DNA of 64,000 nt from Candidatus Bathyarchaeota archaeon (GCA_963768425.1 CAVYHV010000017.1:96001-160000); one strand, 5' to 3'. Positions 21,929 through 40,744 are shown, numbered from the stretch's first letter. The notes: generated from the letters alone by a model not told the origin. Numbers and translations are program-made.

Positions 21929-22106
21929 AATCTTTCACGACTAAGGAAAAAGTTGTTCTACGTATTAAGGGCTTTCCGAAAACAAACGCAAAGCTCCGAA
22001 AGCAACTGCTTTATTGATTGGAAATTAAATCGCGTCCGGAGCTGAACCACAAGCTTTTTATTGATTCAATCGTGTATTTTTAAAGAATATTTAAAGAGGC
22101 ATAAAA

Positions 22107-22157
22107 ATGAGGGATCGTCACCTCAATCGCTGGGATCGTCGGGTACTTATTCTTTGA
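22107..22157 (+). CDS. putative ilv/leu leader peptide MRDRHLNRWDRRVLIL
   Basis: GAGG RBS, ATG at 22107, last four codons Val-Leu-Ile-Leu, TGA at 22155-22157, 99 nt before ilvB; TTTTTATT TATA-like box at ~22055. Confidence 0.7.
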   Translation: MRDRHLNRWDRRVLIL

Positions 22158-22256
22158 TTCGCCCAGGAACCCCTCTGAAAAACACGCAGCAAGATTTGCA
22201 GCTATTATTTTTCGAGACGAGAGCATGTTTATTGAAAAAGGAGAGATCGTTGAAAA

Positions 22257-23972
22257 ATGACTAAAATGTCTGGTGCAAAGGTACTCGTAGAATCCCTCGA
22301 ACAGCAAAACGTCGACGTTATATTCGGCATTTTGGGCGGCGCAATACTACCTGTTTATGATGCATTATGTGGCAACGAGAAAATTAGACATATACTCGCT
22401 AGACACGAACAGGGAGCCGCACACGCAGCCGAAGGCTATGCTAGAGCCAGCGGAAGAGTTGGAGTATGCATTGCAACGTCAGGACCGGGAGCAACTAACC
22501 TAGTCACTGGAATAGCGAACGCATACTTGGATTCTTCGCCGTTGATAGCCATAACAGGGCAGGTTCCATCGACCGGTGTAAACTCTTCGTACATGATCGG
22601 CAAAGATGCCTTTCAAGAAGCAGACATCATCGGCATCACCACTCCAATTACCAAGCATAATTATCAGCCTCGAACGATCGCTGAAATTCAGCCAATGGTT
22701 AATGCAGCCTTCTACATCGCATCTTCCGGCAGACCTGGACCAGTTCTTATTGACTTACCTAAAAACGTACAGTCAGACATAGCCGACGTGGATATGGGAA
22801 TTACAGGGAAAATTGAAGCTCGAGGCTACAAACCAGCATTGACTCCCGACTTAACCAAAATCAGCAAAGCAGTTGATTTGTTAGCTAACGCAGTTGAACC
22901 AATGATACTGGCCGGCGGAGGAGTCATCTCTGCAAATGCCTCCGACGAATTAACGCAAATGTCCGATTTACTAATTGCGCCGGTTGCTACGACCTTTATG
23001 GGCAAAGGCGCTTTTCCCGAATGCCACCCCCTGTCAGTTGGATGCATCGGAATGCACGGAAACCCAGCTGCAAACAGGCTCATCGGGGAAGCTGATGTGC
23101 TGTTAGCTGTCGGAACAAGATTTTCTGACCGAGCAACAGCTAACTTGGATACCTTCGCGCCAAACGCCAAAAAGATACACATAGACATTGACCCGGCTGA
23201 ACTCGGTAAAAACATTGACGTCGACGTCCCCATTGTTGGAGATGCAAAAGTATCATTAAAGCTACTGCATAATGCCGCTGCAAAGAAGCTGCCCAAGATG
23301 AAAGTTAACGCATGGTGGTCAAAACGCATCAAAGAAACCAAGGAGCAGCTAAGTCCATTGCTAAAAGACAGACCCAGAGAGCTGGTGCCTAAAGCCTTAC
23401 TGATAGAGCTAAGGAAACTTCTGCCAGTAGACACAATCGTAACAACAGAAGTTGGGCAAAACCAGATGTGGTCAGCCCTATACTTCCAAGCATTAAAACC
23501 AAGAACCTTCATCAGTTCAGGAGGACTTGGAACCATGGGCTTTGGGTTCCCGGCAGCCATAGGCGCAAAAGTTGCCTGCCCAGATAGGCCCGTCGTGGAC
23601 ATAGCTGGCGACGGCAGCTTCCTGATGACTGAGCAAGAACTGGCGTGTTCGGTAGCGGAAAAGATTCCAGTCATAGTCATAGTGCTGAACAATTCGGTAC
23701 TTGGCATGGTGGCGCAGTGGCAAAGAATGCTCTACGAACGCCGTTACATGGCGGTTCACTTAGGAAAAACACCTGATTTCGTGAAACTTGCAGAAGCTTA
23801 TGGTGCACAAGGTCTTCGCGTAAACTCGATTGAAGAGTTCCAGAAAGCGGTAAAAACAGCGTTAAACAGCGATGTTACAACGGTAATCGACGTGCCTATT
23901 GGCTCAGAACAAGATGTTGTTCCATTTGTGCCTCCAGGCTGCGGTTTACCACAACAGAGAGGTGACTATTGA
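22257..23972 (+). CDS. ilvB: acetolactate synthase large subunit
   Basis: RHEQGAAH, TSGPGATN, SGGLGTMG, GDGSF..N TPP motif. Confidence 0.97.
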   Translation: MTKMSGAKVLVESLEQQNVDVIFGILGGAILPVYDALCGNEKIRHILARHEQGAAHAAEGYARASGRVGVCIATSGPGATNLVTGIANAYLDSSPLIAITGQVPSTGVNSSYMIGKDAFQEADIIGITTPITKHNYQPRTIAEIQPMVNAAFYIASSGRPGPVLIDLPKNVQSDIADVDMGITGKIEARGYKPALTPDLTKISKAVDLLANAVEPMILAGGGVISANASDELTQMSDLLIAPVATTFMGKGAFPECHPLSVGCIGMHGNPAANRLIGEADVLLAVGTRFSDRATANLDTFAPNAKKIHIDIDPAELGKNIDVDVPIVGDAKVSLKLLHNAAAKKLPKMKVNAWWSKRIKETKEQLSPLLKDRPRELVPKALLIELRKLLPVDTIVTTEVGQNQMWSALYFQALKPRTFISSGGLGTMGFGFPAAIGAKVACPDRPVVDIAGDGSFLMTEQELACSVAEKIPVIVIVLNNSVLGMVAQWQRMLYERRYMAVHLGKTPDFVKLAEAYGAQGLRVNSIEEFQKAVKTALNSDVTTVIDVPIGSEQDVVPFVPPGCGLPQQRGDY

Positions 23973-24484
23973 TGGAAACTGACCAAACCAAGGTAATTTC
24001 GGTTCTCGTCGAAAACAAGCCCGGTGTCCTCCATGGGGTAGCAAACCTGTTCAGACGCAGAAACTTCAACATTGAAAGCATAACTGTTGGATTAAGCGAA
24101 AACATCGATACATCACGTATGACAATCACTGTAAAAGGCGACGAAAAAACGCTTGAACAAGTCGTGAAGCAATTAGCGAAACTCATTGATGTCCTAAAAG
24201 TGGAAGAGTTAGAGCCAGGGCATTTTGTGATGCGAGAGTTAGCTTTGATAAAAGTTAATGTACCGACCACGAAAGACCGCTCAGACATAATAAACTGCGT
24301 TGAGGTCTTCAGAGGGCGAATCATTGACGTCTCAACTGACAGCTTAACCGTAGAGATCACTGGAACACCAGACAAGCTTGACGCGTTCCTGAAACTAATG
24401 CAGACAAACGGCATCATTGAATTGGCAAGAACAGGCATAACAGCGTTGGCAAGAGGAGCAAAAACTGTAAGAATGGACGAATAA
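23969..24484 (+). CDS. ilvH: acetolactate synthase small subunit
   Basis: VENKPGVL..F.RRNFNIES ACT domain; RELALIKV, ELARTG. Confidence 0.96.
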   Translation: MMETDQTKVISVLVENKPGVLHGVANLFRRRNFNIESITVGLSENIDTSRMTITVKGDEKTLEQVVKQLAKLIDVLKVEELEPGHFVMRELALIKVNVPTTKDRSDIINCVEVFRGRIIDVSTDSLTVEITGTPDKLDAFLKLMQTNGIIELARTGITALARGAKTVRMDE

Positions 24485-24500
24485 ATCGTTCCTGCAAACG

Positions 24501-24544
24501 GAAACCCTTAATTTCAAGTTTCTTAAAAATGACAAACTTGTCAT
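24501..24544 (+). promoter_or_regulatory. internal promoter before leuC with palindrome ATGACAA-AC-TTGTCAT
   Basis: GAAACCCTTAATT BRE/TATA-like at 24501-24513; perfect 7-bp inverted repeat at 24529-24544. Confidence 0.55.
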
Positions 24545-24589
24545 AGTTATCGGCAGCAAAAAAAGGGAATGATAGAGAAGAGAATTAAA

Positions 24590-25858
24590 ATGAATATTAC
24601 AGAAAAAATCTTGGCTAAAGCTTCAAGCAAAAAAGAGGTGCATCCAGGAGAAATCATCGACGCAAGCGTTGACATGGTTATGGTGCACGATTTAACTGGA
24701 CCTTTAGCGGTTGAAGCCTTCAATAAAATCGGTGTGCAGAAAGTTTGGGATAGCCAAAAGGCAGTGGTGATACTGGATCATCAGGTACCAGCTGAATCCG
24801 TGAAAGCGGCTGAACTGCACAAGACGATGCGTCAATTCGCCAAAGACCAAAACCTACGCATTTACGATGTTGGAAGAGGTGGAGTCTGCCATCAAGTTAT
24901 GCCTGAGAAGGGTCACGTGGTTCCTGGGACAGTAATCGTAGGCGCCGACTCACACACATGCACCTACGGAGCCTTCGGAGCTTTCGCCACTGGAATAGGT
25001 TCAACTGAAGCCGCGTCAGTCTTAGCTACGGGAAAAATCTGGTTAAAAGTGCCCGAAGCAATAAAAGTTAACGTGACTGGGCGTTTCCCAAAGTATGTAA
25101 CTCCAAAAGATCTAATACTGTTCATAATCGGGCAAGTAAGTGTTGAAGGCGCCATATACGAAAGCGCCGAATTCACCGGTCCAACAATCAAGGATATGAG
25201 CATCTCGGGAAGAATGACCCTGTGCAACATGGCTGTGGAAATGGGTGCTAAAAATGGTATCATCGAACCCGACGAAATAACCCGAAAGTTCTTAGATAGA
25301 AGAGTCAAAATCCTGCCAGATTTTGAAGCGTTAAGAAGCGACAAAGACGCGGTTTACCGACGCACATTAGAATTTGATGTTTCAAAAATGGAGCCACAGA
25401 TTGCCTGCCCATCCTCAGTTGACAACGTCAAGCCAGTTTCAGAAGTCGGCAACGTCTCCATCGAGCAGGCGTTTATCGGGTCATGCACCAACGGCAGAAT
25501 CGAAGATTTGCGCATAGCTGCTCAAGTCATGAAGGGCAGGCGCGTCAAAGATGGCGTTAGGGCACTGGTGATTCCAGCTTCACAGGAAGTTTACAAGCAG
25601 GCATTAGACGAAGGCTTAATGGACGTGTTCACGGACGCAGGCGCCATGGTTTGCGGTTCAGCGTGCGGACCATGTTTAGGCGGACACATAGGATTACTGG
25701 CGGCAAACGAAGTTTGCGTCAGCACATCCAACAGAAACTTCATCGGAAGAATGGGCAGCACCCAAGCAAGTGTGTATTTAGCTTCACCAGCAACAGTAGC
25801 TGCTTCAGCAGTAACAGGCAAAATCACCGACCCAAGAAAACTGGAGACAAAACAATGA
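24590..25858 (+). CDS. leuC: isopropylmalate/homoaconitate dehydratase large subunit
   Basis: GADSHTCTYGA, GSCTNGR, CGPCLG, NRNFIGRMG motifs. Confidence 0.95.
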   Translation: MNITEKILAKASSKKEVHPGEIIDASVDMVMVHDLTGPLAVEAFNKIGVQKVWDSQKAVVILDHQVPAESVKAAELHKTMRQFAKDQNLRIYDVGRGGVCHQVMPEKGHVVPGTVIVGADSHTCTYGAFGAFATGIGSTEAASVLATGKIWLKVPEAIKVNVTGRFPKYVTPKDLILFIIGQVSVEGAIYESAEFTGPTIKDMSISGRMTLCNMAVEMGAKNGIIEPDEITRKFLDRRVKILPDFEALRSDKDAVYRRTLEFDVSKMEPQIACPSSVDNVKPVSEVGNVSIEQAFIGSCTNGRIEDLRIAAQVMKGRRVKDGVRALVIPASQEVYKQALDEGLMDVFTDAGAMVCGSACGPCLGGHIGLLAANEVCVSTSNRNFIGRMGSTQASVYLASPATVAASAVTGKITDPRKLETKQ

Positions 25859-26358
25859 ACATGAAAATCAAAGGCCCAGTCATAAAATTCGGAAACAACG
25901 TTGACACAGACGTCATTCTGCCAGGAAAATACCTGACGTTGGTTGATCCCCACGAGCTAGCAAAACATGCCTTGGAAAGTGTAGATATAGATTTTCCCCA
26001 GAAAGCAAAGAAAGGCGTGGTTGTAGTTGGCGGCAAAAACTTTGGATGCGGATCCAGCAGAGAACAAGCGCCCTTAGCCTTAAAATACGCTGGCGTGAAA
26101 TGTGTCTTAGCTGAGTCTTTCGCGCGTATATTTTTCCGAAACGCCATCAACATTGGCTTGCCAGTAATTGAATGCAAAGGCATATCGGCAGCTGTTGAGA
26201 CAGGCGATGAGTTGGCTGTAGATTTCGAAGCTGGTAAGGTAGAAAACGTCTCAAACGGCAAAAAGTTTCAAGTAGAGAAGCTACCTCCGTTTATCTTAGA
26301 AATCTTAGCTGATGGCGGATTAATAGAGAATTTACGTAGGAGAATGAACAAGAAATGA
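25855..26358 (+). CDS. leuD: isopropylmalate/homoaconitate dehydratase small subunit
   Basis: DTDVILP, NFGCGSSREQA, SFARIFFRN motifs. Confidence 0.95.
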   Translation: MNMKIKGPVIKFGNNVDTDVILPGKYLTLVDPHELAKHALESVDIDFPQKAKKGVVVVGGKNFGCGSSREQAPLALKYAGVKCVLAESFARIFFRNAINIGLPVIECKGISAAVETGDELAVDFEAGKVENVSNGKKFQVEKLPPFILEILADGGLIENLRRRMNKK

Positions 26359-27392
26359 CAGAATACAAGATTTCGCTGATTCCCGGAGATGGAATCGGTC
26401 CGGAACTCACAGAAGCAACACTGAAAGTGTTAGATGCCGCCCAGAAAAAATACGGCATAAAACTGAAAATTATCGAGGCGGAAGCAGGCGACGACACCTT
26501 GGCAAAAAGAGGCGCAGCGCTACCTGCGGAAAGTGTAGAAATCATTAAGGCATCACACGCTTGCCTTAAAGGCCCGGTTGGCGAAACGGCAGCAGACGTC
26601 ATAGTTAAACTGCGGTTAATGTTTGATTTGTACGCGAATTTGCGTCCGTTGAAGGCTTATCCTAACGTTCCTGTAGCTAGACCCGACATTGACATGATGT
26701 TTGTTCGGGAGAACACCGAGGACGTTTACAAAGGCTTAGAATTCACCGTTGGCAACGACACAGCGATATGCATGAGAATTATTACAAGAGGAAATTGTGA
26801 ACGTATAGCCAAAAAAGCGTTTGAGATTGCACGTTTACGCAACGGCAAAAAGAAAGTAACCGCTATTCACAAGGCAAACGTTATGCGCGTAACAGACGGT
26901 TTATTCGCAAGCGTGTGCCGCGAAACCGCAAAACGCTACCCAGACATCGCATTTAACGAGCTTTATGTTGACGCGGCGTCAATGCGTCTTATCAAAGAGC
27001 CTCAGGTATTCGATGTGTTCTGCACATGCAACATGTTCGGCGACATCCTATCAGACGAAGCAGCCCAGCAAATCGGCGGCTTAGGAATGGCTCCTGGCGC
27101 AAACATCGGTGAAAACTTCGCGCTTTTTGAACCCATCCATGGTTCAGCTCCAAACAGGGCAGGAAAACACACCGCAAACCCAATCTCGATGGTTCTAAGC
27201 GCCAAAATGATGCTGGAGTGGCTCGGCGAAAAATACAACGATAAAAAATGCATGCAGGCAGGCGCGGCGATTGAGAACGGCGTCGTTTACGCGTTACGAA
27301 ACGGTCAAACTGTTCCAGACTGTGGCGGCAACACAACGACCGTGGGAATGGCGGAAGCCATTGCTGCAGCCTTAACAGTGAAAACTGGCTGA
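26355..27392 (+). CDS. leuB: isopropylmalate/homoisocitrate-family dehydrogenase
   Basis: GDGIGPE, RENTED, HKANV, NMFGDILSD, EPIHGSAP motifs. Confidence 0.92.
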   Translation: MTEYKISLIPGDGIGPELTEATLKVLDAAQKKYGIKLKIIEAEAGDDTLAKRGAALPAESVEIIKASHACLKGPVGETAADVIVKLRLMFDLYANLRPLKAYPNVPVARPDIDMMFVRENTEDVYKGLEFTVGNDTAICMRIITRGNCERIAKKAFEIARLRNGKKKVTAIHKANVMRVTDGLFASVCRETAKRYPDIAFNELYVDAASMRLIKEPQVFDVFCTCNMFGDILSDEAAQQIGGLGMAPGANIGENFALFEPIHGSAPNRAGKHTANPISMVLSAKMMLEWLGEKYNDKKCMQAGAAIENGVVYALRNGQTVPDCGGNTTTVGMAEAIAAALTVKTG

Positions 27393-27396
27393 AAAA

Positions 27397-28908
27397 ATGA
27401 CGAGTAAATATATTCGAATCTTAGACACTACCCTAAGAGATGGTGAACAAACTCCCGGGGTTTCTTTAACCTCTGAAGAGAAAATTGAGATTGCACGCCA
27501 ACTAGACAAACTAGGCGTTGACGTTATCGAAGCGGGTTTTCCAAGCTCCTCCGACGGCGAAAAAAAAGTTGTAAGAGAAATTGTCAAGTTAGGTTTAAAT
27601 TCTGAAATCTGCGCCCTTTCCAGAGCGACAAAAAAAGATATTGACGCGGCACTGGATTGCGAAGTCGACTTGATTCACGTTTTCATCCCGACTTCTGCAG
27701 TGCAGATGAAGTACGCCGTCAATTTAACGCCTGAACAAGTTTTAACTTCAGCAGTTGAGTCGATTGAGTACGTTAAGGCACACGGCGTGAAATGCGAGTT
27801 TTCACCTATGGATGCAACACGCTCCGAAATGCCCTTCCTCAAAAAAATCTGCCAAGCCGCACAGAAAGCAGGAATGGACAGCTTAAACCTGCCCGACACA
27901 GTCGGCATAATGATCCCAAGATCAATCATAAAATTCGTTGAAGATGTAAAATCCGTCGTTAACGTTCCAATAAGCATCCACTGCCACGATGACTTCGGAT
28001 TGGCAGTTGCAAACTCGCTGGCTGCAGTTGAAGCAGGCGCCGCTCAAGTGCATGTTGCCGTCAACGGGTTAGGCGAAAGGGCAGGTAACGCTTCGCTGGA
28101 AGAAGTGATTATGGCGCTGCATGTAATTTACAAGTACAAGACAGGCGTAAACAGCCGACTGCTCTACGGCACATCCCGAATGGTTTCCGCATTAACCGGC
28201 ATAGCTGTGCAGGCTAACAAGGCATTAGTCGGCGAAAACGCTTTCGCGCATGAATCCGGCATCCACACACGCGGAGTAACTGAGAAGCCATTAACCTTTG
28301 AACCGATAGACCCCGCACTAGTCGGACGCACAAGAAAACTTGTAGCTGGAAAACTAGCGGGAACAAGCGGCATCAAAGCAGAGTTGGAAGAAGTTGGCAT
28401 TAACCCAACCGAAGAGCAACTGAAAGAGATTGTCCAACGTGTTAAAGAACTTGGTGACAAGGGCAAAATGGTTACAGATGCAGATTTACTGGCGTTAACT
28501 TCCGCAGTTATGGGCGAAGTCATCAAAGAAGAAAAAATCGTTGACTTATGCGATATGGCAGTCGTCACAGGCATAAAAGTCATACCAACAGCCTCAGTGC
28601 GGCTGGTTCTAGACGGCAAAGAATACGTTGCCGCCGAGACAGGCGTGGGTCCAGTTGACGCAGTTCTTAAGGCAATCCAGAAACTAATTAGCAGCCAAGA
28701 AAAAATCCGTCTCAGAGAATATCGGCTTGAAGCTATCACTGGCGGCTCAAACGCCGTTGCAGAAGTCATCATCAAAGTGGAAGATGAAAAAGGCAACATC
28801 GTCTCAGCCCGCGCAGCAAGAGAGGACATTGTGATGGCAAGCGTCGAAGCGATGATAAACGGTATGAACAAGCTTTTGATTAAGCATAAGCAGGAAAACA
28901 AACCTTGA
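27397..28908 (+). CDS. leuA: 2-isopropylmalate/citramalate synthase
   Basis: DTTLRDGEQ, HCHDD, GERAGN, HESGIH motifs and C-terminal regulatory domain; LeuA versus CimA not resolved. Confidence 0.88.
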   Translation: MTSKYIRILDTTLRDGEQTPGVSLTSEEKIEIARQLDKLGVDVIEAGFPSSSDGEKKVVREIVKLGLNSEICALSRATKKDIDAALDCEVDLIHVFIPTSAVQMKYAVNLTPEQVLTSAVESIEYVKAHGVKCEFSPMDATRSEMPFLKKICQAAQKAGMDSLNLPDTVGIMIPRSIIKFVEDVKSVVNVPISIHCHDDFGLAVANSLAAVEAGAAQVHVAVNGLGERAGNASLEEVIMALHVIYKYKTGVNSRLLYGTSRMVSALTGIAVQANKALVGENAFAHESGIHTRGVTEKPLTFEPIDPALVGRTRKLVAGKLAGTSGIKAELEEVGINPTEEQLKEIVQRVKELGDKGKMVTDADLLALTSAVMGEVIKEEKIVDLCDMAVVTGIKVIPTASVRLVLDGKEYVAAETGVGPVDAVLKAIQKLISSQEKIRLREYRLEAITGGSNAVAEVIIKVEDEKGNIVSARAAREDIVMASVEAMINGMNKLLIKHKQENKP

Positions 28909-29717
28909 AAGTAGCCTATCAAGGTGAAACTGGTGCCTACGGCGAAATGGCGGTCTACAAGTTTTTCGGCAGCAAAGTGGAGCCATTTCCCTGCAAGGAC
29001 TTCCGCGATGTCTTCGAATCTGTAAAGACAGGCGCTGTCCCAAATGGTGTGGTCCCGATTGAGAACTCCATCGAGGGAAGCGTCAACCAAAACTATGATC
29101 TTTTCCTCACCTATGACCTCAAAGTTTGCGGCGAAGTTGCTGTGAAGCTTGCCCACGTCCTAATCGGTAATCCAGAAACCAAATTCGAGGACATCAAAAC
29201 CGTTTACTCGCATCCCCAAGCATTAGCGCAGTGCCGCAAATACTTAGAAAAGCACAAGTGGGAAATCATCCCCGCTTATGATACTGCCGGAGCCGTAAAA
29301 ATCATAAAAGAAAAAAACCTCACAAACGCTGCAGCGATCGCAAGCGAAAAAGCTGCAGACCTTTACAGCATGAAGATTCTTTCTCGAGATATCGCCGATA
29401 ATCCATCTAACTACACTCGATTTCTTGTCCTGGGCAATGAAGATGCAGCACCCACAGGTGACGATAAGACCTCGATCATTTTTTCAGCCAAACATGCTCC
29501 TGGAACTCTATACCATGCTCTTGGAGAGTTCGCGTCAAGAAACATCAACCTAACCAGAATAGAATCCAGACCGACAAAAACCACAGCTTGGCAATACAAC
29601 TTTTACCTCGACTTCGAGGGGCACAGAACCGAAAAGCGCTGCGCAGAAGCCTTAGAAGCGCTGGAAAAATACGCTACCTTCGTGAAGATTCTGGGATCTT
29701 ACCCAAGAGTCATTTAA
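28905..29717 (+). CDS. pheA: prephenate dehydratase
   Basis: PIENSIEG, SHPQALAQC, NYTRF, IESRP ACT, LGSYP motifs. Confidence 0.96.
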   Translation: MKVAYQGETGAYGEMAVYKFFGSKVEPFPCKDFRDVFESVKTGAVPNGVVPIENSIEGSVNQNYDLFLTYDLKVCGEVAVKLAHVLIGNPETKFEDIKTVYSHPQALAQCRKYLEKHKWEIIPAYDTAGAVKIIKEKNLTNAAAIASEKAADLYSMKILSRDIADNPSNYTRFLVLGNEDAAPTGDDKTSIIFSAKHAPGTLYHALGEFASRNINLTRIESRPTKTTAWQYNFYLDFEGHRTEKRCAEALEALEKYATFVKILGSYPRVI

Positions 29718-29781
29718 AAGCCGTCTAGCGAAGAACAACTGTTACTTGAGCGTTGCAGAGGCCGCGAATAGAAGCGGATTT

Positions 29782-30402
29782 CTATCGCTTAACCACGTTC
29801 TTGTAGAAGTTCCCGATTATTCTGTGTCCCTCAGGATGGGTTTCGCTTTTTACAGTTATGCGTTCAGGATGAAATTGGACGCCCCAGAAGGGTTTGCTTT
29901 TGTGTTTGACGGCTTCCACTTCGCATGAAGCTGAATCCGCGAGCAAGATGAAACCTGCTTCGCTCAAGTTCTCTTTCAAAACGTAATCGAAATGGTTTTC
30001 TGAGAGCGGAACAGTTTGGTCTTTTCTGAACCCATCAAATATTCCATTTAATTCAGCTACACGGACCGCCTCAAAACGGTCCAAAACTGGCTGTTTCAAT
30101 GACCCGACTTTGGCGCCGAACGCCCAGCAGAGCAACTGATGCCCAAAGCAAATGCCTAACGTAGGCAACTCACAGGTTCGTATCAGATTAACAACCCCCT
30201 CGAATAGGCGTCTGTCAGAAGAGTCAACTATTCTAACTCCAGAACCGCTGACGATGACAGCGTCAATTTCTCCTTTCACGCAATAGTCTTCATTAATGTC
30301 TTTGAAGTGGATAATTTGGCATTGGCTGAACTTTCCAACGGCTTCAACTAAAGCCTCGCTTTTCGATTTTAAAGAACAGTTCACAACCAACGATTTAGGC
30401 AT
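29782..30402 (-). CDS. class I glutamine amidotransferase (GuaA-A/TrpG-like)
   Basis: GICFGHQ, GVQFHPE catalytic triad; last gene of aro operon. Confidence 0.88.
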   Translation of the reverse strand: MPKSLVVNCSLKSKSEALVEAVGKFSQCQIIHFKDINEDYCVKGEIDAVIVSGSGVRIVDSSDRRLFEGVVNLIRTCELPTLGICFGHQLLCWAFGAKVGSLKQPVLDRFEAVRVAELNGIFDGFRKDQTVPLSENHFDYVLKENLSEAGFILLADSASCEVEAVKHKSKPFWGVQFHPERITVKSETHPEGHRIIGNFYKNVVKR

Positions 30403-30411
30403 CTGGTTTCC

Positions 30412-32364: not shown

Positions 32365-32393
32365 TAGTGAACTTTCCTTTTTCTGATTATTTC

Positions 32394-32657
32394 TTACTCT
32401 TGAACTGCACTGCACATATTAACTATTTCGCGGTAGAGTGCCTCAACTTTCTGGGAATCTAAGCCTAATTCACCAGATTTCTCTTTCACTTTTTTGTAAA
32501 CATCGTTTTCTCTGGAGACATCTTTTACAGGCATGCCGCGCTTCTTCTTCACTAAACCAATAGCCATGCATATCTTGATTCTTTCAGTCAGAGATTTCAA
32601 AATCAAATCGTCTACTTGGTCAACCTGCTTTCGGTACATTTCAAGCTCATCTAACAA
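32394..32657 (-). CDS. chorismate mutase (AroQ type)
   Basis: R..VD.VD..I...L.ER, K...GMPVKD..RE, VQE end; GGAGG before TTG. Confidence 0.92.
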   Translation of the reverse strand: MLDELEMYRKQVDQVDDLILKSLTERIKICMAIGLVKKKRGMPVKDVSRENDVYKKVKEKSGELGLDSQKVEALYREIVNMCSAVQE

Positions 32658-33765
32658 TTTTCTTTGCCTCCAAGACTTTCGAAATGAAACCACCACGGAT
32701 CATATGGTCAGCTAACGTAACAGCTACAGCGGCTTCCACCACCGGCACGGCTTTCGGGACCACACAGGGGTCATGCCTTCCTTTGACGGTTACAGATGCA
32801 TCTTCCATATTGGACATGTTCACGGTTTTCTGCGGCAAGCTGATGGAAGGCGTCGGTTTAATCGCTACCAGCATGAGAATTGGCATGCCGTTTGATAAGC
32901 CCCCCAAGATTCCACCCATGTTATTGGTGAAAGATGCAACTTTCCCGTTTTGCATGACGTAAGCGTCGTTGCTTTCTGAGCCTTTTGACTCAGCGATCCC
33001 GAAACCCAACCCGAATTCAACTGCTTTGACCGCTGGAACATTAAACAGCGCCTTAGCTAAATCAGCGTCAAGAGAGTCAAACAATGGCTCGCCTACCCCC
33101 ACTGGAACGTTGAGAACAAGACATTCGACTACGCCGCCTACGCTTTCACCTTCTTTTCTGGCTTCAACAATGACTTCCTTCATAATTTCACTGCACTCCA
33201 AGTCAGGGCATCGAGTCGCCGCCACATAACGATTCCTTCGGATCACTTCAGAACTAAACTTTTTGTCGCTTCTGATTTTGCCTATTGCTCTTGTATATGC
33301 TAAAACGTCGACGTCGAAGCGGCTTAGCAGTTTCTTGGCTATGGCGCCAGCCATTATTAATGCGACTGTGAGTCTTCCGCTGAAGCGTCCGCCCCCACGG
33401 TAATCGTTAAAGCCGCCGTACTTGATACTTGCAGTGTAGTCTGCGTGCCCGGGTCTTGGCAGATTCTTGTTTACCTCATAGTCTGAGGAGTCAACTTCTT
33501 TGTTCTCCACTGTCACCGCTATTGGTGCACCAGTCGTGAATCCATTAAAGACGCCTGAAAGGATTTTAGGCATGTCTTTTTCGATCCTTCCCGAAACAAT
33601 TTTGGGATCAGATGGGATGCGTCTGTCCAACTCGTCTTGAATGTCCGCTTCAGAGAGAGCTAAGCCTGCCGGGCAACCATCCACAACTACACCTACGATT
33701 TTGCCGTGGCTTTCTCCGAAACTGGTGACAACGAATTCTTTACCTATCGAATTTCCCGCCAACAA
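32647..33765 (-). CDS. aroC: chorismate synthase
   Basis: FGESHG, PRPGHAD, KPTPSI, GRHDPC motifs. Confidence 0.97.
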   Translation of the reverse strand: MLAGNSIGKEFVVTSFGESHGKIVGVVVDGCPAGLALSEADIQDELDRRIPSDPKIVSGRIEKDMPKILSGVFNGFTTGAPIAVTVENKEVDSSDYEVNKNLPRPGHADYTASIKYGGFNDYRGGGRFSGRLTVALIMAGAIAKKLLSRFDVDVLAYTRAIGKIRSDKKFSSEVIRRNRYVAATRCPDLECSEIMKEVIVEARKEGESVGGVVECLVLNVPVGVGEPLFDSLDADLAKALFNVPAVKAVEFGLGFGIAESKGSESNDAYVMQNGKVASFTNNMGGILGGLSNGMPILMLVAIKPTPSISLPQKTVNMSNMEDASVTVKGRHDPCVVPKAVPVVEAAVAVTLADHMIRGGFISKVLEAKKIVR

Positions 33766-35044
33766 TTTCCGCTCCTAACTGTTGTAGATGAATAAAGAAC
33801 TGTGGATAAGACTTTCTGACGCATTGAGCGTTTTGAATGAGAGTTTGCTTTTCCGCGCCTAGGGCTGCTACCGCGCAAGCCATCACTATACGATGGTCAT
33901 TGTGGGGGTTAATTGTGGCGCCGTGCAGGCTAGCGGTTTCCTTTATAGTTAGGCTGCTTGAATCCACTTCTATTTTGGCCCCCATCTTTGCGAATTCAGA
34001 ATGGAGGGATAGCAGCCTATCAGATTCTTTTAGCTTGAGCCTTTGCGCTCCGCTGATTTTTGAGGTACCTTTGGCGAAACATGCAAGAGCCGTGCACACT
34101 GGGACAAGATCAGGGATGTTTCTTGCATCGATGTTGAGTGGCTCAAGCGGACTTCCGACGCCGTCTATTTCGACGCTGTTCTCACAAACCTTGCCAGCTA
34201 CGCCCATTTGCTTGAGAATACCCAAAATTGCTTTGTCGCCCTGAATGGTCTCGTAATCGAGATCGTTTATCTGCACTTTTGAGTTAGTTACGGCTGCGGC
34301 TGCCAATAGAAATGCGGCTGAAGAGAAGTCTCCGGGCACTCGACAATCAACGGGCTTGAAGGTTTGGTTGGCTGGAATGACGATACTTTCGAAATTTCCG
34401 TAAACGTCCACTCTGATCCCATGCTTTGAGAGCACGTCCAAAGTCATCTTGACGTAGTCCGTTGACTCCAGCGGCGAGGTGAGCTTAATTTCAGTGTCAA
34501 CTTTAGCCATTGGGCATGCAAACATTAGACCCGAAATGAACTGGGAAGTAACATCGCCGCGAATTGAGGTTTGTCCTCCGAGGATTCCGCCGCCCTCGAC
34601 AATTACTGCGTCTTTGCCTCCGAATTTTTTTATATGAACCCTTGTGCCCAAATCGTCGAGGCTTTTGATTAGTGGTTCGATTGGTCTGCGGTTAAGAGAG
34701 CCGCGGAAGAGCAGCGTGGAAGAGTCACTTGCTAGGGCAGCTAGGGGTATCATGAAACGTAGCGTAGCCCCAGATTCTCCGCAGTCAACGGGTGCTTTCG
34801 CGTTTTGAATCGGCGCTGCGCCTTTGATAACCCAGCAGTTTTCCTCAAAGCTTGTTTCTGCACCTAACGCCGTTATCCCGCGCAAGGTAGCTTCTGTGTC
34901 TTCGGAAAGAAGCGGGTTTGAGACTTTTCCGGTACCGAATGAAAGCGCCGCTGCGATGAGCATTCTCTGTGTGTAAGATTTTGAAGGGGGAGCGCATAAT
35001 TCGCCTTTTAGTTTTTCAGATTTTTTAACGATTACGTCGACCAT
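33740..35044 (-). CDS. aroA: EPSP synthase
   Basis: PPSKS, GESGATLRF, SQFISG, KESDR, DHRI, KSYP motifs. Confidence 0.97.
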   Translation of the reverse strand: MVDVIVKKSEKLKGELCAPPSKSYTQRMLIAAALSFGTGKVSNPLLSEDTEATLRGITALGAETSFEENCWVIKGAAPIQNAKAPVDCGESGATLRFMIPLAALASDSSTLLFRGSLNRRPIEPLIKSLDDLGTRVHIKKFGGKDAVIVEGGGILGGQTSIRGDVTSQFISGLMFACPMAKVDTEIKLTSPLESTDYVKMTLDVLSKHGIRVDVYGNFESIVIPANQTFKPVDCRVPGDFSSAAFLLAAAAVTNSKVQINDLDYETIQGDKAILGILKQMGVAGKVCENSVEIDGVGSPLEPLNIDARNIPDLVPVCTALACFAKGTSKISGAQRLKLKESDRLLSLHSEFAKMGAKIEVDSSSLTIKETASLHGATINPHNDHRIVMACAVAALGAEKQTLIQNAQCVRKSYPQFFIHLQQLGAEIVGGKFDR

Positions 35045-35045
35045 G

Positions 35046-35916
35046 CTAAATCACCTTTGCTTTCTCCTGGTTGAAGTTGGCTTGCAAGACTTCGCCGTCG
35101 AATTTCTTAAGCGCAGCACTCACCGAATCAACTTTGCCCTTGGGCGTAACTGCTGTTACCGCTGGTCCTTTACCGCAGAGCCCAGCCGCCACCGCCCCAG
35201 CTTCCAACGCGTCAATCGCGATTGAGGAGTCATACCCCCATGCTGATGAGTAGATTATGCCGTTGAGCGTCAACGACTCCCAGAACTTGCCCGCTAAAGC
35301 TTCTTCGTAGGCAACTTGAACTAGCGGTTTTACTTTTCGTGCCCTCTCAACGTTTGAGTCAGCTGTGTAGGATTTTTCCAGAGGAACATGGAAAAGCACA
35401 ACCAAATCTTCAGGCAAAGGTGACTTTCTGAGAAGTTTCTGCTCCAAATTGTCAGTAATAACCACGCCGCCGAAATATGAAGCGCATGCATCGTCAAAAG
35501 CGCCCGTAACTGTCACTTTAGCGTCGAAAGCAGCGTCAACGCCCAGCCTGACGATTTCAACGTCATCCAGCGTTTCGCCCAAGAGCCGCTATAGTTGCCA
35601 ACGCAACCGCATTAGCTGCGGCACTGCTGCTTTTAAGCCCCTTTGCGATGGGAATGTTGGACCAAGTTTTGACTTTGGCGCCGAATCTCCTCTCCGCCTT
35701 AAAATATTGGAGAACTCGCGCGACAGTTTTTTCCATCAGAACCGTGCTTTCTTTCGGATCAGAAACTATCTCTGCGTTGAAAATCGCGACCTCATCCGTC
35801 AATTCTACCTGCGCCTTCGTAAACAGGTCAACTCCGAAAGCGGCGCCTTTGCCCAGCGCCATTGCGTTAACAATCGTTGCTGCGCCATGAGCTATAGCTG
35901 TGGCTTCCTTCGTCAA
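35046..35916 (-). CDS. aroK: archaeal (GHMP-type) shikimate kinase, split by indel near 35580
   Basis: IVNAMALGKGAAFG, GLKSSSA, TGAFDDACAS, G.GPA motifs. Confidence 0.93.
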
Positions 35917-36780
35917 CTCTTCTGCACCTTTCGCAAGTGACTAAGCGCTGCCTCCCTCATAACTTGAACTGGCGCCTTAGCTCCAGTCCAGATTTCAAAT
36001 GACGCTGCCCCTTGATAAATCAGCATTTCAACCCCACTGACCACTTTGGCGCCTGCAGCCTTCGCTTTTTTCGCTAATTTGGTTTCGATTGGGTTGTAGA
36101 CTATATCCATTACAGCTAAGTCAGGCTTGAGCCATTTTGGGGCTACCAGAGTTTCGTTATCGTTTGGTTTCATCCCGACTGAGGTAGCGTTAATCAGAAT
36201 GTCAGCATCAACTAGATTTCCTTTGACCGTGAGGGGGGAAAGCGCGTACGCAAACACTTTGCTGTCAAATGTTTCCTTTATGAGGTCAGCTAACTGGGCA
36301 GCTGGCACAATTGAACGATTCAAAATTGAAATCTCTGCTGTGTGCTCGGCCAAAGCGAAGGCTATAGCTCTTGCAGCGCCGCCTGCGCCAAGCAACATTA
36401 CTTTTTTGCCCTTGGGCTCAACTCCATTTTCTCTCAGAGCTGACAATGCACCGACGCCGTCAGTGTTAAAGCCCAAAAGTTTGCCATTTTCATTCTTTAC
36501 TGTGTTAACTGCCTTCAGAGCCTTGGCTGCCGGGTCAACTTCATCCAAGAAGCTAAGTACAGAGGCTTTATAAGGCATCGTAACGTTCAAGCCCTGAATC
36601 CCCAACGCACGTACGCCGTCCATGGCTTTTCCAACGTCAGGAGATTTTACATTAAACGCTAAGAATGTGCAGTCAAGTTTGGTTGCATGCAAACGCCGCG
36701 TTCTGCATAACTGGACTTAAGCTATGCTCAATGGGGTCGCCGATTACTCCGAAAACCTTGGTTTTCCCTGAAACAGCCAT
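35913..36780 (-). CDS. aroE: shikimate dehydrogenase, indel near 36690
   Basis: GDPIEHSLSP (read by hand), NVTMPYK, NTDG, GAGGAA, NATSVGM motifs. Confidence 0.95.
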
Positions 36781-36781
36781 T

Positions 36782-37465
36782 TCACTGTGCCCCCAAAAGC
36801 TCGTATGCAGCCTTCATTTTGCCGATAGACATTTGCCCCTTCGCAGTTTCGCTACCCTGCTCAAGACAAGCAAAAGTGAAGAAAGCGCCGAACATCGGTG
36901 AAATAAGCCTTGAAACCTTCCCTTCTTCGCCCATGCAGAAACAGACAAGCTTCACCTTACCTGAATGGGAAGATACAAAATTCAGCACTTCCAAATTGTC
37001 CTCGATTTTCTTGGCTGTCACCACAATTTTGCAGACGTTGGCGCCGCATGCGACTTCTTGCTCAAGAACGTTTTCCATCGATGAACGGCTTAATTCGCCG
37101 TCGAATTTGTGGTGGGAAACTATTATTTTGGCGCCCAGCTGCTTGAGTTTTTCGATTATTTCTTGGCGATTCGGGCTTGACAGGTCAACGTCAACGTACT
37201 CGAACCCGTTTTGGGCTGCATTTAGAAGACTTTGTTGACGTTCGGTTTCTGACGCCGAGGAAACGCCGTTTTCACTGGTCAGTTTATGGGTTGCGATTAA
37301 AGGGATTTTTGCGCTCTGAATAAATGCCTTCAAGTCTGTTGTAACATCCATGCGGTCGAGCCTAACTTCGATTAGGTCGGCTTTGGCTTCCTCCGCGCTT
37401 TTGATGAGGTTTAACGCTTCAGCCGTGTTTTTTGGAAGAATCGAAACGCAGATTCTCATTGTCAC
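36782..37465 (-). CDS. aroD: type I 3-dehydroquinate dehydratase
   Basis: IEVRLD, IVSHH, CKI, FCMGEEGKVSR, TA.GQ motifs. Confidence 0.95.
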   Translation of the reverse strand: MTMRICVSILPKNTAEALNLIKSAEEAKADLIEVRLDRMDVTTDLKAFIQSAKIPLIATHKLTSENGVSSASETERQQSLLNAAQNGFEYVDVDLSSPNRQEIIEKLKQLGAKIIVSHHKFDGELSRSSMENVLEQEVACGANVCKIVVTAKKIEDNLEVLNFVSSHSGKVKLVCFCMGEEGKVSRLISPMFGAFFTFACLEQGSETAKGQMSIGKMKAAYELLGAQ

Positions 37466-38504
37466 CTTTCAATCACCGTTTCTTCAGGCACGGAAACGCC
37501 AAAGTGCCTGCCTCCCTTAGCGGCTAAATGCACCAGAACCTCGTCGTTTACGTTGAGTTCCGTGACGGGTTTGGAGGCTTTCGGCGTGACAAGGCGGATG
37601 GTTTCAGCGTTTTGCAGTATAGTTTTGATTTTTGTGTCGTCCGCTTGCGCTTCAATCAGGATGAGTGGTCGGAACTCGATTTTTGACCTGCCCACATTGG
37701 TTATTCTTGCTTTTCCTTCTCTGTTAATGATTAAAACTTCGTCCCCGGCTTTCAGTTCAGAGAGGTACCGAGTGTTCTGGATCGATGTTAGCGTGTAATG
37801 TGATGCAGGTCCAGCGTTCACTCGGAAGGGTCGGGATTGCACATACGGGTTCTCATTTACTTCCGCCTCAACGAGGAAGAACCCTGCTGATTGGCAGCCA
37901 ACGAGCATTCCCTCGCCTGGAACCATCAAATCTACAGTGTCCACGCAGACTCTTGCACCTGTGCCGATAGTTTGAATGGAGAGAACCTTTGCGATCGTTA
38001 ACGCGACCTTAGGAATTTGACCCTTGACCAGCTTTACTGTTTTGGCGAGTTCATTGAGGTTTGAGGTTTTTAGTAGAACACCGTCTGTTCCCAGCTCTAA
38101 GGCTTCAAGAACCACTTTGGCTTCTTGCGCGGTGGCGACTTCGCGATAAGTTTGCTTTTACCCCCATGCGCCTTCGCAATTAAGTTCTCCAGCGGGATAA
38201 CACGCCAATCAAACGTGCTAATAATTATGTAATCAACTCCCATCTCAGCCGCTTTGGCAGCGCGGTTCTCTTCTTCTTTCCCTGTTATGTTGATTTTAAC
38301 GGCGGTTTTTCTGCTTTCATTTTTAGTTTGCGAAATTTTTTTCTCAGACAGATCAGCGAGGAAAACTATGTCTAATTTGCCGTTACGGGTGCTCGCTTGG
38401 GTTCCTTCGAGCACTACATCCGCGTTTTCATGTGCAGTGCTGAGCAAGTTTTCTTTTTCTTGCGGTGAAGCCGCATGTTCGATTTCTACCCAAAGTTCCT
38501 TCAC
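37462..38504 (-). CDS. 3-dehydroquinate synthase II (AroB'), split by indel near 38130
   Basis: DWRVIPLENLIA, RVCVDT, RPFRVNAG, LQNAETI, GRHFG motifs. Confidence 0.94.
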
Positions 38505-39291
38505 GTTTTTTCACCGAGAATTTTAGCGCTTCTTGCACGCTGGCGCCGCCGTGAACGATTGCTGAGAGCGCCTTGACGATTAGGGTTGGGTTTTCATGTT
38601 GGAAGACGTTGCGTCCGATTGAAAGCCCAGATGCTCCAGCTGAAAGGGCGTCATGTGTGGTTTGGAGAACTTCTTCAGAAGTCTTGCATTTCGGTCCCCC
38701 GGCAATCACCACTGGAACGGGGCAACTCTCCACCACGGTTTTGAAGGTGTCTATGCTTCCTGTAAAGTTTGCTTTGATGATGTCTGCGCCAAGCTCGGCG
38801 CCGATTCGTGCTGCATGAGCAACGACGTCGGCTGCGTGTTCATTTTGTATTTTGGGTCCCCGAGGATACATCATTGCAAGAAGCGGCATGCCGTAAACAT
38901 CACATTCGTCGGCTACGCTACCAAGGTTTTGAAGCATTTTGTCTTCGTCTTGGGCGCCGATGTTAACGTGCACTGAAACCGCGTCTGCACCAAGGCGAAT
39001 TGCTTCCTGTACGCTGCAAACTTGGACTTTGCCGTTCACGTTCGGGCTAAGGTTTGACATGCCTGAAAGCATCACGATTAACCCTACGTCATCAGCGTCG
39101 GTGTGTTTAGCGATGCCTTTGTGGACAAGGACGGCGTCGGCGCCGCCTTTGATGAGTTGATCGATTGTTTTCTGCATGTTGGTTAACCCTTGGATTGGGC
39201 CGATTGTTACGCCGTGGTCCATAGGTACGATTACAGTACGGTTGTCTTGCTGCATTATTCTTCTTAGTCTTCGACTTTTTCCTTGATTCAT
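38501..39291 (-). CDS. 2-amino-3,7-dideoxy-D-threo-hept-6-ulosonate synthase (AroA', class I aldolase family)
   Basis: PMDHG, MMYPRG, ELGADIIK, AGGPK, GRNVFQ; adjacent to DHQ synthase II; 3' indel. Confidence 0.92.
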
Positions 39292-39300
39292 GTTTCCACC

Positions 39301-40549
39301 TTACTTAGCGCTCCTTAAAGAGTTTTTAATCATTTTGAGGGCTTTTTCCCGTTCATTCCAATCCACAAAAAGTAGGATGCTTGACGTTATTGTCAGTATT
39401 CCTGAAATGTTTATGCCGCTAACTCGCAAATCTTCACTGATTTTCCCAATTATGCCGTGGGTTTCCTCCAAGCCGACGCCGCTTGTCTTTATGAAAACAA
39501 GGTCCTTTTTCACAGCCATAGCGATCGTTTCCTTGTTGCTCTTTGTTATATTGTGGATATCGTTGAATAACCCCTCCAAGTTTGCTTCTTCTGAAACGTA
39601 AAGGATAACGGAGTTCGTGTTCATCGACATGCCCAAGAGATGCGAATGCAGCTTCGTTTTCTCAACCATCTCCTGAACGATCTGCGGGTTAGCTGAGATG
39701 CCGTTCCCTATCACGGTAATTTCGGCGACAGGGAAAGGATGCGCAATTTCAGCGTCAAGCTCACTGGCTAAGTCCACCTGTAACTAACGTTCCTTCTTCT
39801 GAAAGGTTGCCGCAGGCGTGGTTGATGACGCGGACGTTGATATTTTTGGGTTTGTACTTTAACGCTTTGCTGTGGATGAATTTCGCACCTGAATCGGCAA
39901 GCCCAACTAGCGTGTTGACATCGATTTCTTTTAGACGCTCAACGTTGGAAAGAAGTTTCGGGTCTCCTGTCATGATGCCGTTAGCGTCTGTTACCAAGAT
40001 GATTTCGTTCGCTCCTAGCGCTTCGGCGAGGACAAAGGCCGTTGTGTCGCTTCCACCTCTTCCAAGAGTTGTGATTTTGCCGTCTTTGGTTTTACCCAAG
40101 AAACCTGCAACCACGGGAACTGTGCCTTTTTCCATGATTGGCAGGACGCATTCACGGATATTTTTTTCGCAGTCTTTGAGGATTGGATTAGCATTTTGAA
40201 AGGCTGCATCAGTTATTATAGGCCAGTTGCTGTCAATCGGGTCAAAATAGCAGGATTCCGCTCCGTTCGTTCTTAGCGCTGTTGAGAAGATTCGGATGCT
40301 GGTCCGCTCACCCATCGACAGGATATCGTCCAAATCTTTTTTCTCCAGTTTCCCGTTGGAAGCGTTCTTCGCCGTAGCCATGAGGACATCAGTTGTTTTG
40401 CCCATAGCGGAAACTACAACAGCGATCCGAGTGCCTTTTTTAGCTTCATTAACCACAGCAACCACAGCTTTTAAGAGTCTTTCGTGATCCGCTAGGCTAG
40501 ACCCACCGAATTTAACAACAATTGTTTTGTTAGAGCGAGTTTTCTCCAT
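39301..40549 (-). CDS. lysC: aspartate kinase, split by indel near 39770
   Basis: KFGGSS, VVSAMG, TTLGRGGSDTTA motifs and C-terminal ACT domains. Confidence 0.93.
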
Positions 40550-40566
40550 TTGTTACACCCGTGCTT

Positions 40567-40605
40567 GCCCAGAACCAACCCCAAAAAAATTCTTTAGTTC
40601 TGGGC
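40567..40605 (-). promoter_or_regulatory. attenuator-like hairpin enclosing a U7 tract
   Basis: mRNA sense GCCCAGAACTAA-AGAATTTTTTTGGGG-TTGGTTCTGGGC; 12 bp with one G.U; 5' arm is the last codons and stop of the leader ORF. Confidence 0.75.
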
Positions 40606-40689
40606 TTGAGGAAAATAACTATAATAAAAGTAGTCGAAGCTCTGGAACCATGAGGCAACGTTTTCTTTGTTGAGTGCGAGATTAGACAT
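40594..40689 (-). CDS. putative aromatic leader peptide MSNLALNKENVASWFQSFDYFYYSYFPQAQN
   Basis: 31 codons; 9 of residues 14-26 aromatic (1 W, 4 F, 4 Y); stop 44 nt before the first gene of the aro operon. Confidence 0.85.
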   Translation of the reverse strand: MSNLALNKENVASWFQSFDYFYYSYFPQAQN

Positions 40690-40728
40690 TGAAGCTTCGA
40701 ACCTTGCAGAATGAGTCATAAAATAGAA

Positions 40729-40744
40729 AATATAAGCGTTTCGG
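40729..40744 (-). promoter_or_regulatory. BRE/TATA promoter of leader plus aro operon
   Basis: Minus strand CCGAAACG-CTTATATT, about 40 nt before the leader ATG. Confidence 0.65.

Follow-up and report, generated by a model that had tools for sequence, protein, structure and literature searches.

Two amino-acid operons in a 64,000-nucleotide (nt) stretch of a Candidatus Bathyarchaeota archaeon genome—one for branched-chain amino acids on the plus strand, the other for aromatic amino acids on the minus strand—are each preceded by a short upstream open reading frame (uORF), and leaders of related design precede hisG and trpE elsewhere in the same lineage of Bathyarchaeia. We suggest that the ilv-leu, his and trp leaders contain +1 frameshift cassettes similar to that of the bacterial prfB gene, and that these cassettes, together with a leader rich in Phe and Tyr codons ahead of the aromatic operon, sense the supply of charged tRNA. 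We put the probability of this at roughly 60%. The stretch, which we refer to as the window, comprises positions 96001–160000 of contig C17 in an assembly of 33 contigs and 2.96 Mb; homologues of one of its genes, for ADH synthase, assign it to Bathyarchaeia metagenome-assembled genomes from peat and soil. For each of the ilv, his and trp leaders 30 loci from the genus were compared and, for trp, 17 more from six families (47 in all). Another 11 ilv loci came from other families; nine have a leader and the remaining two, in which ilvB stands behind another gene, have none.

Candidate frameshift cassettes before trpE, hisG and ilvB

The case is clearest for trp. The trpE leader begins ATG GGG AAT CGC CTT TGG, and among the 47 loci codon 5 is NTT in every one, codon 6 is TGG in 45, and the base that follows is C in 40. 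Read from this ATG, frame 0 stops after 10–24 codons; the conserved block of TrpE lies instead in the +1 frame, in 28 of the 30 genus loci and in all 17 of the others. No ATG, GTG or TTG is present in the TrpE frame upstream of that block in 17 of the 28 and 11 of the 17. In the two loci that lack TGG, L213 and L218, this ATG is already in frame with TrpE: the sequence of L218 is CTT GAC, and L213 has one G fewer. The products of both align with the product predicted for the shift (MGNRL, then G.. after the shift point), and so the skipped base lies in NTT-T-GG. As far as sequence can establish such a thing, production of TrpE needs a +1 shift. The G-rich motif of the leader, GAGGGAUC, nearly complements the 3' end of 16S rRNA. 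Two TGTACA boxes, conserved in the genus, occur directly upstream of the trp TATA box (L201–L230, approximately 60–90 nt before the trpE start; in this genome at about C6:49900–49935, minus strand). They resemble those of the TrpY repressor, and control of trp by transcription may thus exist beside control by frameshifting.

The hisG leader begins ATG AGG GAT TGC GTT CAT, with His as codon 6 in 30 of 30 loci, and contains repeats of GATTGCNTTCAT. The second unit is 19 nt (3n+1) downstream of the first and is therefore in frame after one +1 shift, when it reads CTT-CAT-stop (CTT CAT TGA) and closes that frame. In 29 of 30 loci, compared with 6.3% of shuffled sequences, it is the +2 frame that stays open as far as the hisG start, and its stop falls at +5 or just beyond the hisG start in 27 and at -10 in two. 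The candidate shift codons here, GTT-C and CTT-C, are partly slippery. Upstream of one his locus (L122:481–534, minus strand) there is a weak match to the C/D-box small RNA sR41, which scores 28.8 bits where the gathering score is 54 (E=0.0025).

The ilv-leu leader in the window has two such units, A and B, within a uORF of 16 codons (Table 1). The arrangement is the same in all 30 genus loci: the Shine-Dalgarno (SD) sequence AAGAGG and, 7 nt further on, ATGAGGGATCGTCACCTCAATAGCTGGGATCGTCGGGTAC are followed by three codons that vary and by a stop as codon 17. In the other families GGAGG stands at this spacing from a start that is either ATG or GTG, AGGGAT comes next, and the peptides include MRDSRVRRNRFIHSR and MRDRFL. 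Codon 6 is Leu throughout the genus and either GTA (Val) or CTC/CTT (Leu) in the other families, hence Leu or Val in 39 of 39 loci. Unit B follows unit A by 21 nt (3n), in the same frame, and places Val at codon 13 in 30 of 30. An earlier note on this DNA had described the uORF as loaded with branched-chain codons. It is not: five of its codons specify Arg, and the last three vary (LIL, QLL, HFY, YFF, PRN and others in the genus; I, L or V at 56 of 90 positions). Just past the frame-0 stop is GCCCAGGAAC (22160–22175), nearly the same as the 5' arm of the aromatic-leader hairpin described below, GCCCAGAAC; its predicted pairing partner is the CTGGG of unit B.

The spacing within the cassettes is constant. 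The SD-like motif ends 3 nt ahead of the codon at which the shift would occur—GAGGGAT-CGT-CAC and CTGGGAT-CGT-CGG in the window, with the same spacing in his and trp—and GAGGGAT is nearly complementary to the 16S 3' end of this genome (..GGAUCACCUCCU). Codon 6 specifies the end product of the pathway each time: Leu or Val for ilv, His for his, Trp for trp. The chance of all three matches is about 1e-4, a rough, post hoc estimate from background uORF frequencies of 0.22 for I/L/V, 0.025 for His and 0.016 for Trp.

The +1 frame of the ilv leader begins after the TGA of A-TGA-GGG, has no canonical start, and runs for about 140 nt to end on the ilvB start. In every one of the 30 genus loci its stop is within 5 nt of the ilvB ATG on one side or the other (-5 to +5), as it is in 8.8% of shuffled sequences, and in 29 of the 30 the +2 frame is closed early on. 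The spacers across which the frame stays open are all distinct (30 of 30), the distance from uORF ATG to ilvB ATG varying from 144 to 158 nt. It is open up to the ilvB start region in all nine leaders from other families too, and in the seven of these whose stop falls within the fetched sequence, it overlaps or abuts the ilvB start (ATGA, TAGATG or ATGGTTGA, for example). When folded, the ilvB translation initiation region has a mean pairing probability of 0.50 over the 30 loci; values near 0.5 for ilvB and hisG hint, weakly, that coupling to an upstream ribosome, or unfolding by one, could matter.

The SD-like motif, the fixed spacing, the single cognate codon and the start-less +1 frame together suggest programmed +1 frameshifting and coupling rather than transcription attenuation. 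Each cassette would open with its start codon and an SD-like, G-rich motif (GAGGGAU; in trp, GGGGAAU); 3 nt further on comes the P-site codon, and a single cognate codon then occupies the A site. When the cognate aminoacyl-tRNA is plentiful, the ribosome would continue in frame 0 for about 16 codons and stop. When there is too little of it, the ribosome would wait at the cognate codon, held by pairing between the SD-like motif and the anti-SD, and would shift +1, so that shifting rises on starvation. In trp, the frame entered is that of TrpE itself. In ilv, it is the spacer open reading frame (ORF), which would carry the ribosome across the leader to end on the ilvB start (ATGA), from which ilvB would be translated by coupling. 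In his, two successive His-dependent shifts would be required. The spacings fit this scheme: the two ilv units, 21 nt apart, would sense Leu and Val on an either-or basis, and the his units would sense His in two steps. We consider it somewhat better than an even bet that this order of Bathyarchaeia runs its trp, his and ilv-leu pathways with one modular hungry-codon +1 device, such that the enzyme is made (TrpE), or its start is reached (ilvB, hisG), only after a shift.

The aromatic leader and its read-out

The leader of the aromatic operon is built differently. It is a uORF in which, as the earlier note pointed out, the operon's own end products are heavily represented: nine aromatic residues fall within a stretch of 13. 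We fetched 80 related loci, analysed 72 jointly, and used 71 sequences for alignment and RNAalifold. An aromatic-rich uORF occupies the same place in 77 of the 80, and the remaining three (L010, L067, L076) include too little upstream sequence to contain one. The last 12 codons encode six to nine aromatic residues in 72 of 72 loci (332 Tyr, 234 Phe, 5 Trp), against 8% aromatic residues in the variable N-terminal part, and this is so among 54 distinct nucleotide versions of the leader. In 67 of 72 loci a whole number of codons separates AGCTTCG from the hairpin, and the indels likewise have lengths that are multiples of 3. Loading alone is unexceptional in this genome; it is conservation across loci that makes the leader more than chance.

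In the alignment, the elements follow one another in the order BRE/TATA (B recognition element and TATA box), GGTTCGAAGCT, ATG with some 17 variable codons, AGCTTCGA, aromatic run, and stop, and then GCCCAGAACT, an A/T loop, AGTTCTGGGC, SD, and the ATG of the aspartate kinase gene. RNAalifold predicts a pair of helices, P1 and P2. P2 pairs 40605–40597 with 40575–40567 (9–10 bp; the RNAalifold helix has 10 bp, with G-U pairs and a few compensatory changes), has a mean folding energy of -16 kcal/mol, and ends a median of 18 nt ahead of the aspartate kinase start. The leader stop is immediately next to P2 in 65 of 72 loci, and every family seen has an aromatic codon one or two codons ahead of that stop. 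The P2 loop carries a run of at least four T in 67 of 72 loci and of two or three T in the other five; L170 has none. C-TTT-TAT, within the aromatic run, is among the most conserved stretches of the alignment. One-sided changes in the helices are almost all from A-U to G-U, and P1 and P2 are therefore sense-strand RNA; P2 as a DNA palindrome, an operator, was rejected for this reason. In the window, positions 40606–40608 (minus strand) read CAA where nearly all relatives have TAA, TAG or TGA, and the window leader is therefore five codons longer, continuing through the 5' arm of the hairpin.

Other lineages have aromatic leaders of their own, with hairpins of different sequence: ..KAYRYYYYRFF, MFFDFFYYYFYFE and MFYGYGFYFYR, each followed by a stop, are examples. 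Such leaders occur in families f14 and f30, in genus g29 of family f1, and in the Bathyarchaeota loci L068, L075 and L080; only in f14 relatives is the hairpin followed by TTTTT. Direct inspection of 38 loci from other families reveals a clear aromatic leader in four (L170, L180, L181, L182) and a doubtful one in L172. A covariance model of the leader (R1), applied with strict filters, matched 11 of 151 sampled genomes of the class, all from family f1.

RNA contigs from three metatranscriptome studies, belonging to relatives 93–98% alike, join the leader to the aspartate kinase gene. These contigs cover small shares of the stretch and carry neither transcript 3' ends nor expression level. All three have TAA at the leader stop. 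The contigs of each study end at 40694, a base that precedes the leader ATG by 5 nt and follows the start site predicted by BRE/TATA by about 10 nt. Should the transcript really begin at 40694, the mature RNA would lack the 5' strand of P1 and the helix could not form.

The position of the ribosome on the Phe/Tyr run would control expression of this operon by way of the hairpin upstream of the first-gene SD. The hairpin may act on translation or on termination at the U tract of its loop, or a slip at UUU-UAU may be the means. The stop is pressed against a strong hairpin just before the SD in all lineages, and this favours a translational read-out, in which we have low confidence. One version, possible but less likely than not, applies to this leader only and is translational attenuation of the ermC/cat type: a ribosome on the last aromatic codons, or shifted +1 at UUU-UAU, would open P2, freeing a standby site or delivering ribosomes to the aspartate kinase SD, and fast reading would keep P2 shut. 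The position of the stop and of the last aromatic codons, the closeness of P2 to the gene, the strong conservation of C-TTT-TAT, and the retention of a hairpin whose sequence differs between families are all consistent with this, and the sign of the regulation would be right. The SD is not within the hairpin, however; modelled opening energies of the initiation region shift by less than 1.5 kcal/mol, and inconsistently; stalls on the earlier aromatic codons would not open P2; and the +1 frame is not open in every locus. Two other read-outs were rejected: one in which the aromatic run would sequester the initiation region of the aspartate kinase gene, given that opening energies were without consistent effect, and +1 read-through, unconvincing with a frame open in 51 of 72 loci.

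Alternatives, further leaders and the operons

A number of observations weigh against our reading as a whole. The frameshift proposal is read from sequence, and the genus loci are kin, so that counts such as 30 of 30 overstate their independence. In 11 of the 28 genus trp loci there is an upstream in-frame ATG (-8 to -44) or a GTG, a TTG or, once, an ATG at +19, that could start TrpE directly. The P-site codons of the ilv leader (CAC-C, CGG-G, TTC-C) are not slippery in the prfB sense, and the shift sites of ilv and his are placed by analogy with trp. The start of the ilv +1 peptide, GI[VA]GYGGI[VA]S, is conserved across families and rich in branched-chain amino acids, and might itself be the leader peptide. 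Motif scans for more cassettes were too noisy to identify a further member with confidence. As for the aromatic leader, the mean opening energy of the aspartate kinase initiation region is 8.2 kcal/mol when free, 7.4 with a stalled ribosome and 6.7 with a terminating one, with no consistent change; a +1 frame open as far as the aspartate kinase start is confined to those 51 loci, some 12 having no open alternative frame; and the ends of the RNA contigs would exclude the 5' strand of P1.

On the model of the earlier note both leaders would be transcription attenuators: a stall would alter folding or coupling, and a U tract would be the place where RNA polymerase either terminates, intrinsically or with FttA/aCPSF1, or continues. 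Parts of its account stand. Both uORFs are where it placed them; leader ORFs with cognate codons are indeed lineage-wide (aro, ilv, his, trp), and the further leaders it predicted have appeared for his and trp. It was also right that neither leader in the window has a hairpin directly followed by a U tail: there is no such terminator before the first gene, T7 being inside the P2 loop. The pairing and T tracts it described are present as the aromatic hairpin with T7, and as T5 at 22208–22212 in the ilv leader, although the aromatic tract is absent in several relatives. Oligo-U alone can end archaeal transcription, and this, with the loop T runs and the f14 leaders in which TTTTT follows the hairpin, is what speaks for attenuation. 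We nevertheless regard it as improbable. RNAalifold on the 71 aromatic leaders yields only P1 and P2, and on 30 ilv leaders only small helices that do not covary; hence no mutually exclusive pair, and no terminator, emerges from either set, and there is nothing else for the 3' arm of P2 to pair with. Because that arm is transcribed later than the U tract, P2 cannot hide the tract; uncoupling brought on by a stall would give regulation of the wrong sign, with expression reduced in starvation; several relatives have a short T run or none; the RNA contigs continue from leader into gene; and the ilv +1 frame that ends on the ATG is left unexplained. Sign, timing and the non-universal T run led us to reject T-tract termination as the main aromatic read-out.

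It is more doubtful still that the long ilv +1 ORF starts itself, at a non-canonical second codon (AUC, AUA or AUU), and is an ordinary leader peptide coupled to ilvB with no frameshift. Such a peptide would begin GIVTSIAGIVGYL, with six I, L or V among 13 residues, and the conserved start just mentioned is what would be expected. The conserved SD, however, is positioned for the frame-0 ATG or GTG, the in-frame variants L213 and L218 indicate that the trpE cassette starts at that same ATG, and a stall within a coupled leader would reduce ilvB translation in starvation. Just as doubtful is that the ilv and his leaders are structured RNAs, riboswitch-like or protein-binding, with ORFs and open frames as by-products: a 40-nt core is conserved in nucleotides with few synonymous changes, GAGG/CCUC pairings are predicted and direct repeats are present, but there is no covariation and no Rfam match (Rfam 15: none at gathering score in the window, none at E<=1 for three leader regions in L081, L122 and L001), and frames that stay open across variable, indel-bearing spacers, stop/start overlaps, ATG/GTG exchange behind an SD, a fixed cognate codon in three pathways, and 3n versus 3n+1 repeat spacing would go unexplained.

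The earlier note called for a genome-wide scan for loaded leaders. Carried out de novo on this genome, the scan recovered the aromatic leader and no other classical loaded leader, and showed loading to be unexceptional: three of 3696 uORFs score seven aromatics in ten, two of them before unrelated genes. Other uORFs most enriched in a single amino acid precede genes for DUF1697, an LCM methyltransferase, an ABC ATPase, a dienelactone hydrolase, a flavodoxin and a PQQ-repeat protein. The scan used crude ORF calls (at least 150 amino acids, first ATG only) on an assembly that contains indels, and can miss leaders. Two further aromatic-rich uORFs (C14:80701 and C28:67460 of this genome, G000; MDFGTYFWYFAEFSFFPVWF and MNLFLPYFYFFSFSEY..) precede a 382-residue protein with no Pfam match and an ABC ATPase. 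The motif scans turned up two uORFs beginning MRDWKP, at C6:238090 and C14:165174. Upstream of the CTP synthase gene (C1:24115–24235, minus strand) there are two uORFs starting with MRD, MRDCTFLQ.. and MRDVGCCGENYG, the latter with a stop that overlaps the start of the gene, so that use of an MRD start may extend past amino-acid operons.

The contents of the two operons, given in Table 1, are as the earlier note had them. The aromatic operon encodes the archaeal route to aromatics from aspartate semialdehyde, with which an aspartate kinase gene at its head is consistent; pheA (prephenate dehydratase, 28905–29717) closes the ilv-leu operon, not the aromatic one. Three genes on the minus strand each appear as two overlapping ORFs: aspartate kinase (39301–40549), DHQ synthase II (37462–38504) and shikimate kinase (35046–35916). 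The trpE gene of the same assembly (C6:47848–49850) is read in three frames. Together these point to indel errors in the assembly, which are likelier than pseudogenes.

Table 1. Positions of leader elements and operons in the window
Feature	Position	Strand	Basis or conservation
BRE/TATA-like putative promoter of ilv-leu leader, CCACAAGCTTTTTATTGA	22047..22064	+	Conserved block ..CCGTAAACTTTTTATTTG.. in 30 genus loci; promoter function putative
SD of ilv uORF, AAGAGG, 7 nt before ATG	22094..22099	+	AGAGG nearly invariant in alignment
ilv uORF, frame 0, MRDRHLNRWDRRVLIL then stop, 16 codons	22107..22157	+	16 codons in 30/30 genus loci
Cassette A: SD-like GAGGGAT, spacer CGT, codon CAC, cognate Leu CTC (22122-22124)	22109..22124	+	Sequence
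Start-less +1 ORF, GIVTSIAGIVGYLFFDS...EIVEK then stop	22111..22260	+	TGA 22258-22260 overlaps ilvB ATG 22257-22259
Cassette B: CTGGGAT, CGT, CGG, cognate Val GTA (22143-22145)	22130..22145	+	Direct repeat of GGGATCGTC
ilvB SD region, AAAGGAGAG	22237..22245	+	AGGAGA conserved in alignment; paired in minimum-free-energy fold of window leader
ilvB-ilvN-leuC-leuD-leuB-leuA-pheA operon	22257..29717	+	NCBIfam matches
BRE/TATA of aromatic leader, CCGAAACGCTTATATTTT	40727..40744	-	GAAA, CTT, TAT invariant, rest nearly so, in 71 sequences
P1 5' strand, TTCGAAGCT	40693..40701	-	RNAalifold helix, 7 bp; one-sided changes almost all to G-U
Aromatic leader ORF, MSNLALNKENVASWFQSFDYFYYSYFPQAQN then stop, 31 codons	40594..40689	-	Conserved in relatives
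Aromatic codon run, W F Q S F D Y F Y Y S Y F	40612..40650	-	72 loci
P1 3' strand, AGCTTCGA, codons Ser-Phe-Asp	40634..40641	-	AGCTTC invariant nucleotides, next G nearly so
P2 hairpin: GCCCAGAAC, loop with T7 (40589-40583), GTTCTGGGC	40567..40605	-	RNAalifold
SD-like GGGTG of aspartate kinase gene	40556..40560	-	Conserved GGGTG or GGATGG, at most about 18 nt past P2
Aromatic operon: aspartate kinase, ADH synthase, DHQ synthase II, aroD, aroE, shikimate kinase, aroA, aroC	40549 down to at least 32647	-	NCBIfam matches

Comparison with known systems

How archaea couple amino-acid supply to biosynthesis is poorly known. Two archaeal ribosome-profiling (Ribo-seq) papers, in the portions available, remark only that small ORFs in 5' untranslated regions may act as uORFs. 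In the corresponding portions of the literature that we searched (including PMC6393860, PMC11456600, PMC10117724 and PMC8211752), no report was found of amino-acid leader attenuation in archaea, or of regulatory or trpE frameshifting.

The classical attenuators of bacteria—E. coli trp, his, leu and pheA, and those of Actinobacteria (PMC1262725, abstract)—also have short ORFs with end-product codons, and the aromatic run resembles that of pheL. Both of our uORFs are, judging by their sequences, short, conserved leader ORFs directly upstream of the operon. The Bathyarchaeia leaders differ in having no alternative hairpins and no terminator, and in the ilv, his and trp cases they have one or two cognate codons at fixed positions. 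In ermC and cat, expression is governed by translational attenuation. The aromatic leader is similar by analogy, with its leader ORF beside a hairpin before the SD of the regulated gene, and dissimilar in that the signal would be amino-acid supply, not a drug, and the SD is outside the hairpin.

Closer to the trp cassette is prfB, in which, according to the part of PMC12421855 that we drew on, an SD-like motif is followed by 3 nt, CTTT, a slow codon, and then C. The trp cassette likewise has an internal SD-like purine run, a 3-nt spacer, a slippery NTTT, a presumably slow A-site codon followed by C, an early frame-0 stop, and its product in the +1 frame; the site is NUU-UGG compared with CUU-UGA-C, with UGG in the place of UGA. 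Trp thus shares most of the features of the prfB type, the slow decoding being supposed, and ilv lacks the slippery codon. There are differences. The slow codon here is a sense codon for the end product (UGG, CAU, CUC, GUA), which would make charged tRNA the signal in place of a release factor. The cassette begins at the initiation codon, and the host is an archaeon, whereas prfB is bacterial. And the +1 frame in ilv and his would be a spacer ORF leading to coupling, not a protein.

The waiting that we envisage is familiar from other shift sites, such as CUU-AGG-C of Ty1. In hungry-codon +1 frameshifting, according to a 2016 review (PMC5009743), the P-site tRNA slips while the A-site codon awaits a scarce tRNA; of starvation-specific trans-frame products, the available text of this review says that 'no examples are known'. 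In Ty1 and in starved E. coli, the shifting is unlike that proposed here, which would be a regulatory sensor of the pathway's own product. Unless we are mistaken, gene callers will mis-annotate trpE in these genomes as start-less or broken, and the cassette will prove to be a simple sensor, readable from sequence and independent of transcription-translation coupling. If so, it would be the first natural case of hungry-codon frameshifting used as an amino-acid sensor, and an archaeal, translational counterpart of bacterial attenuation.

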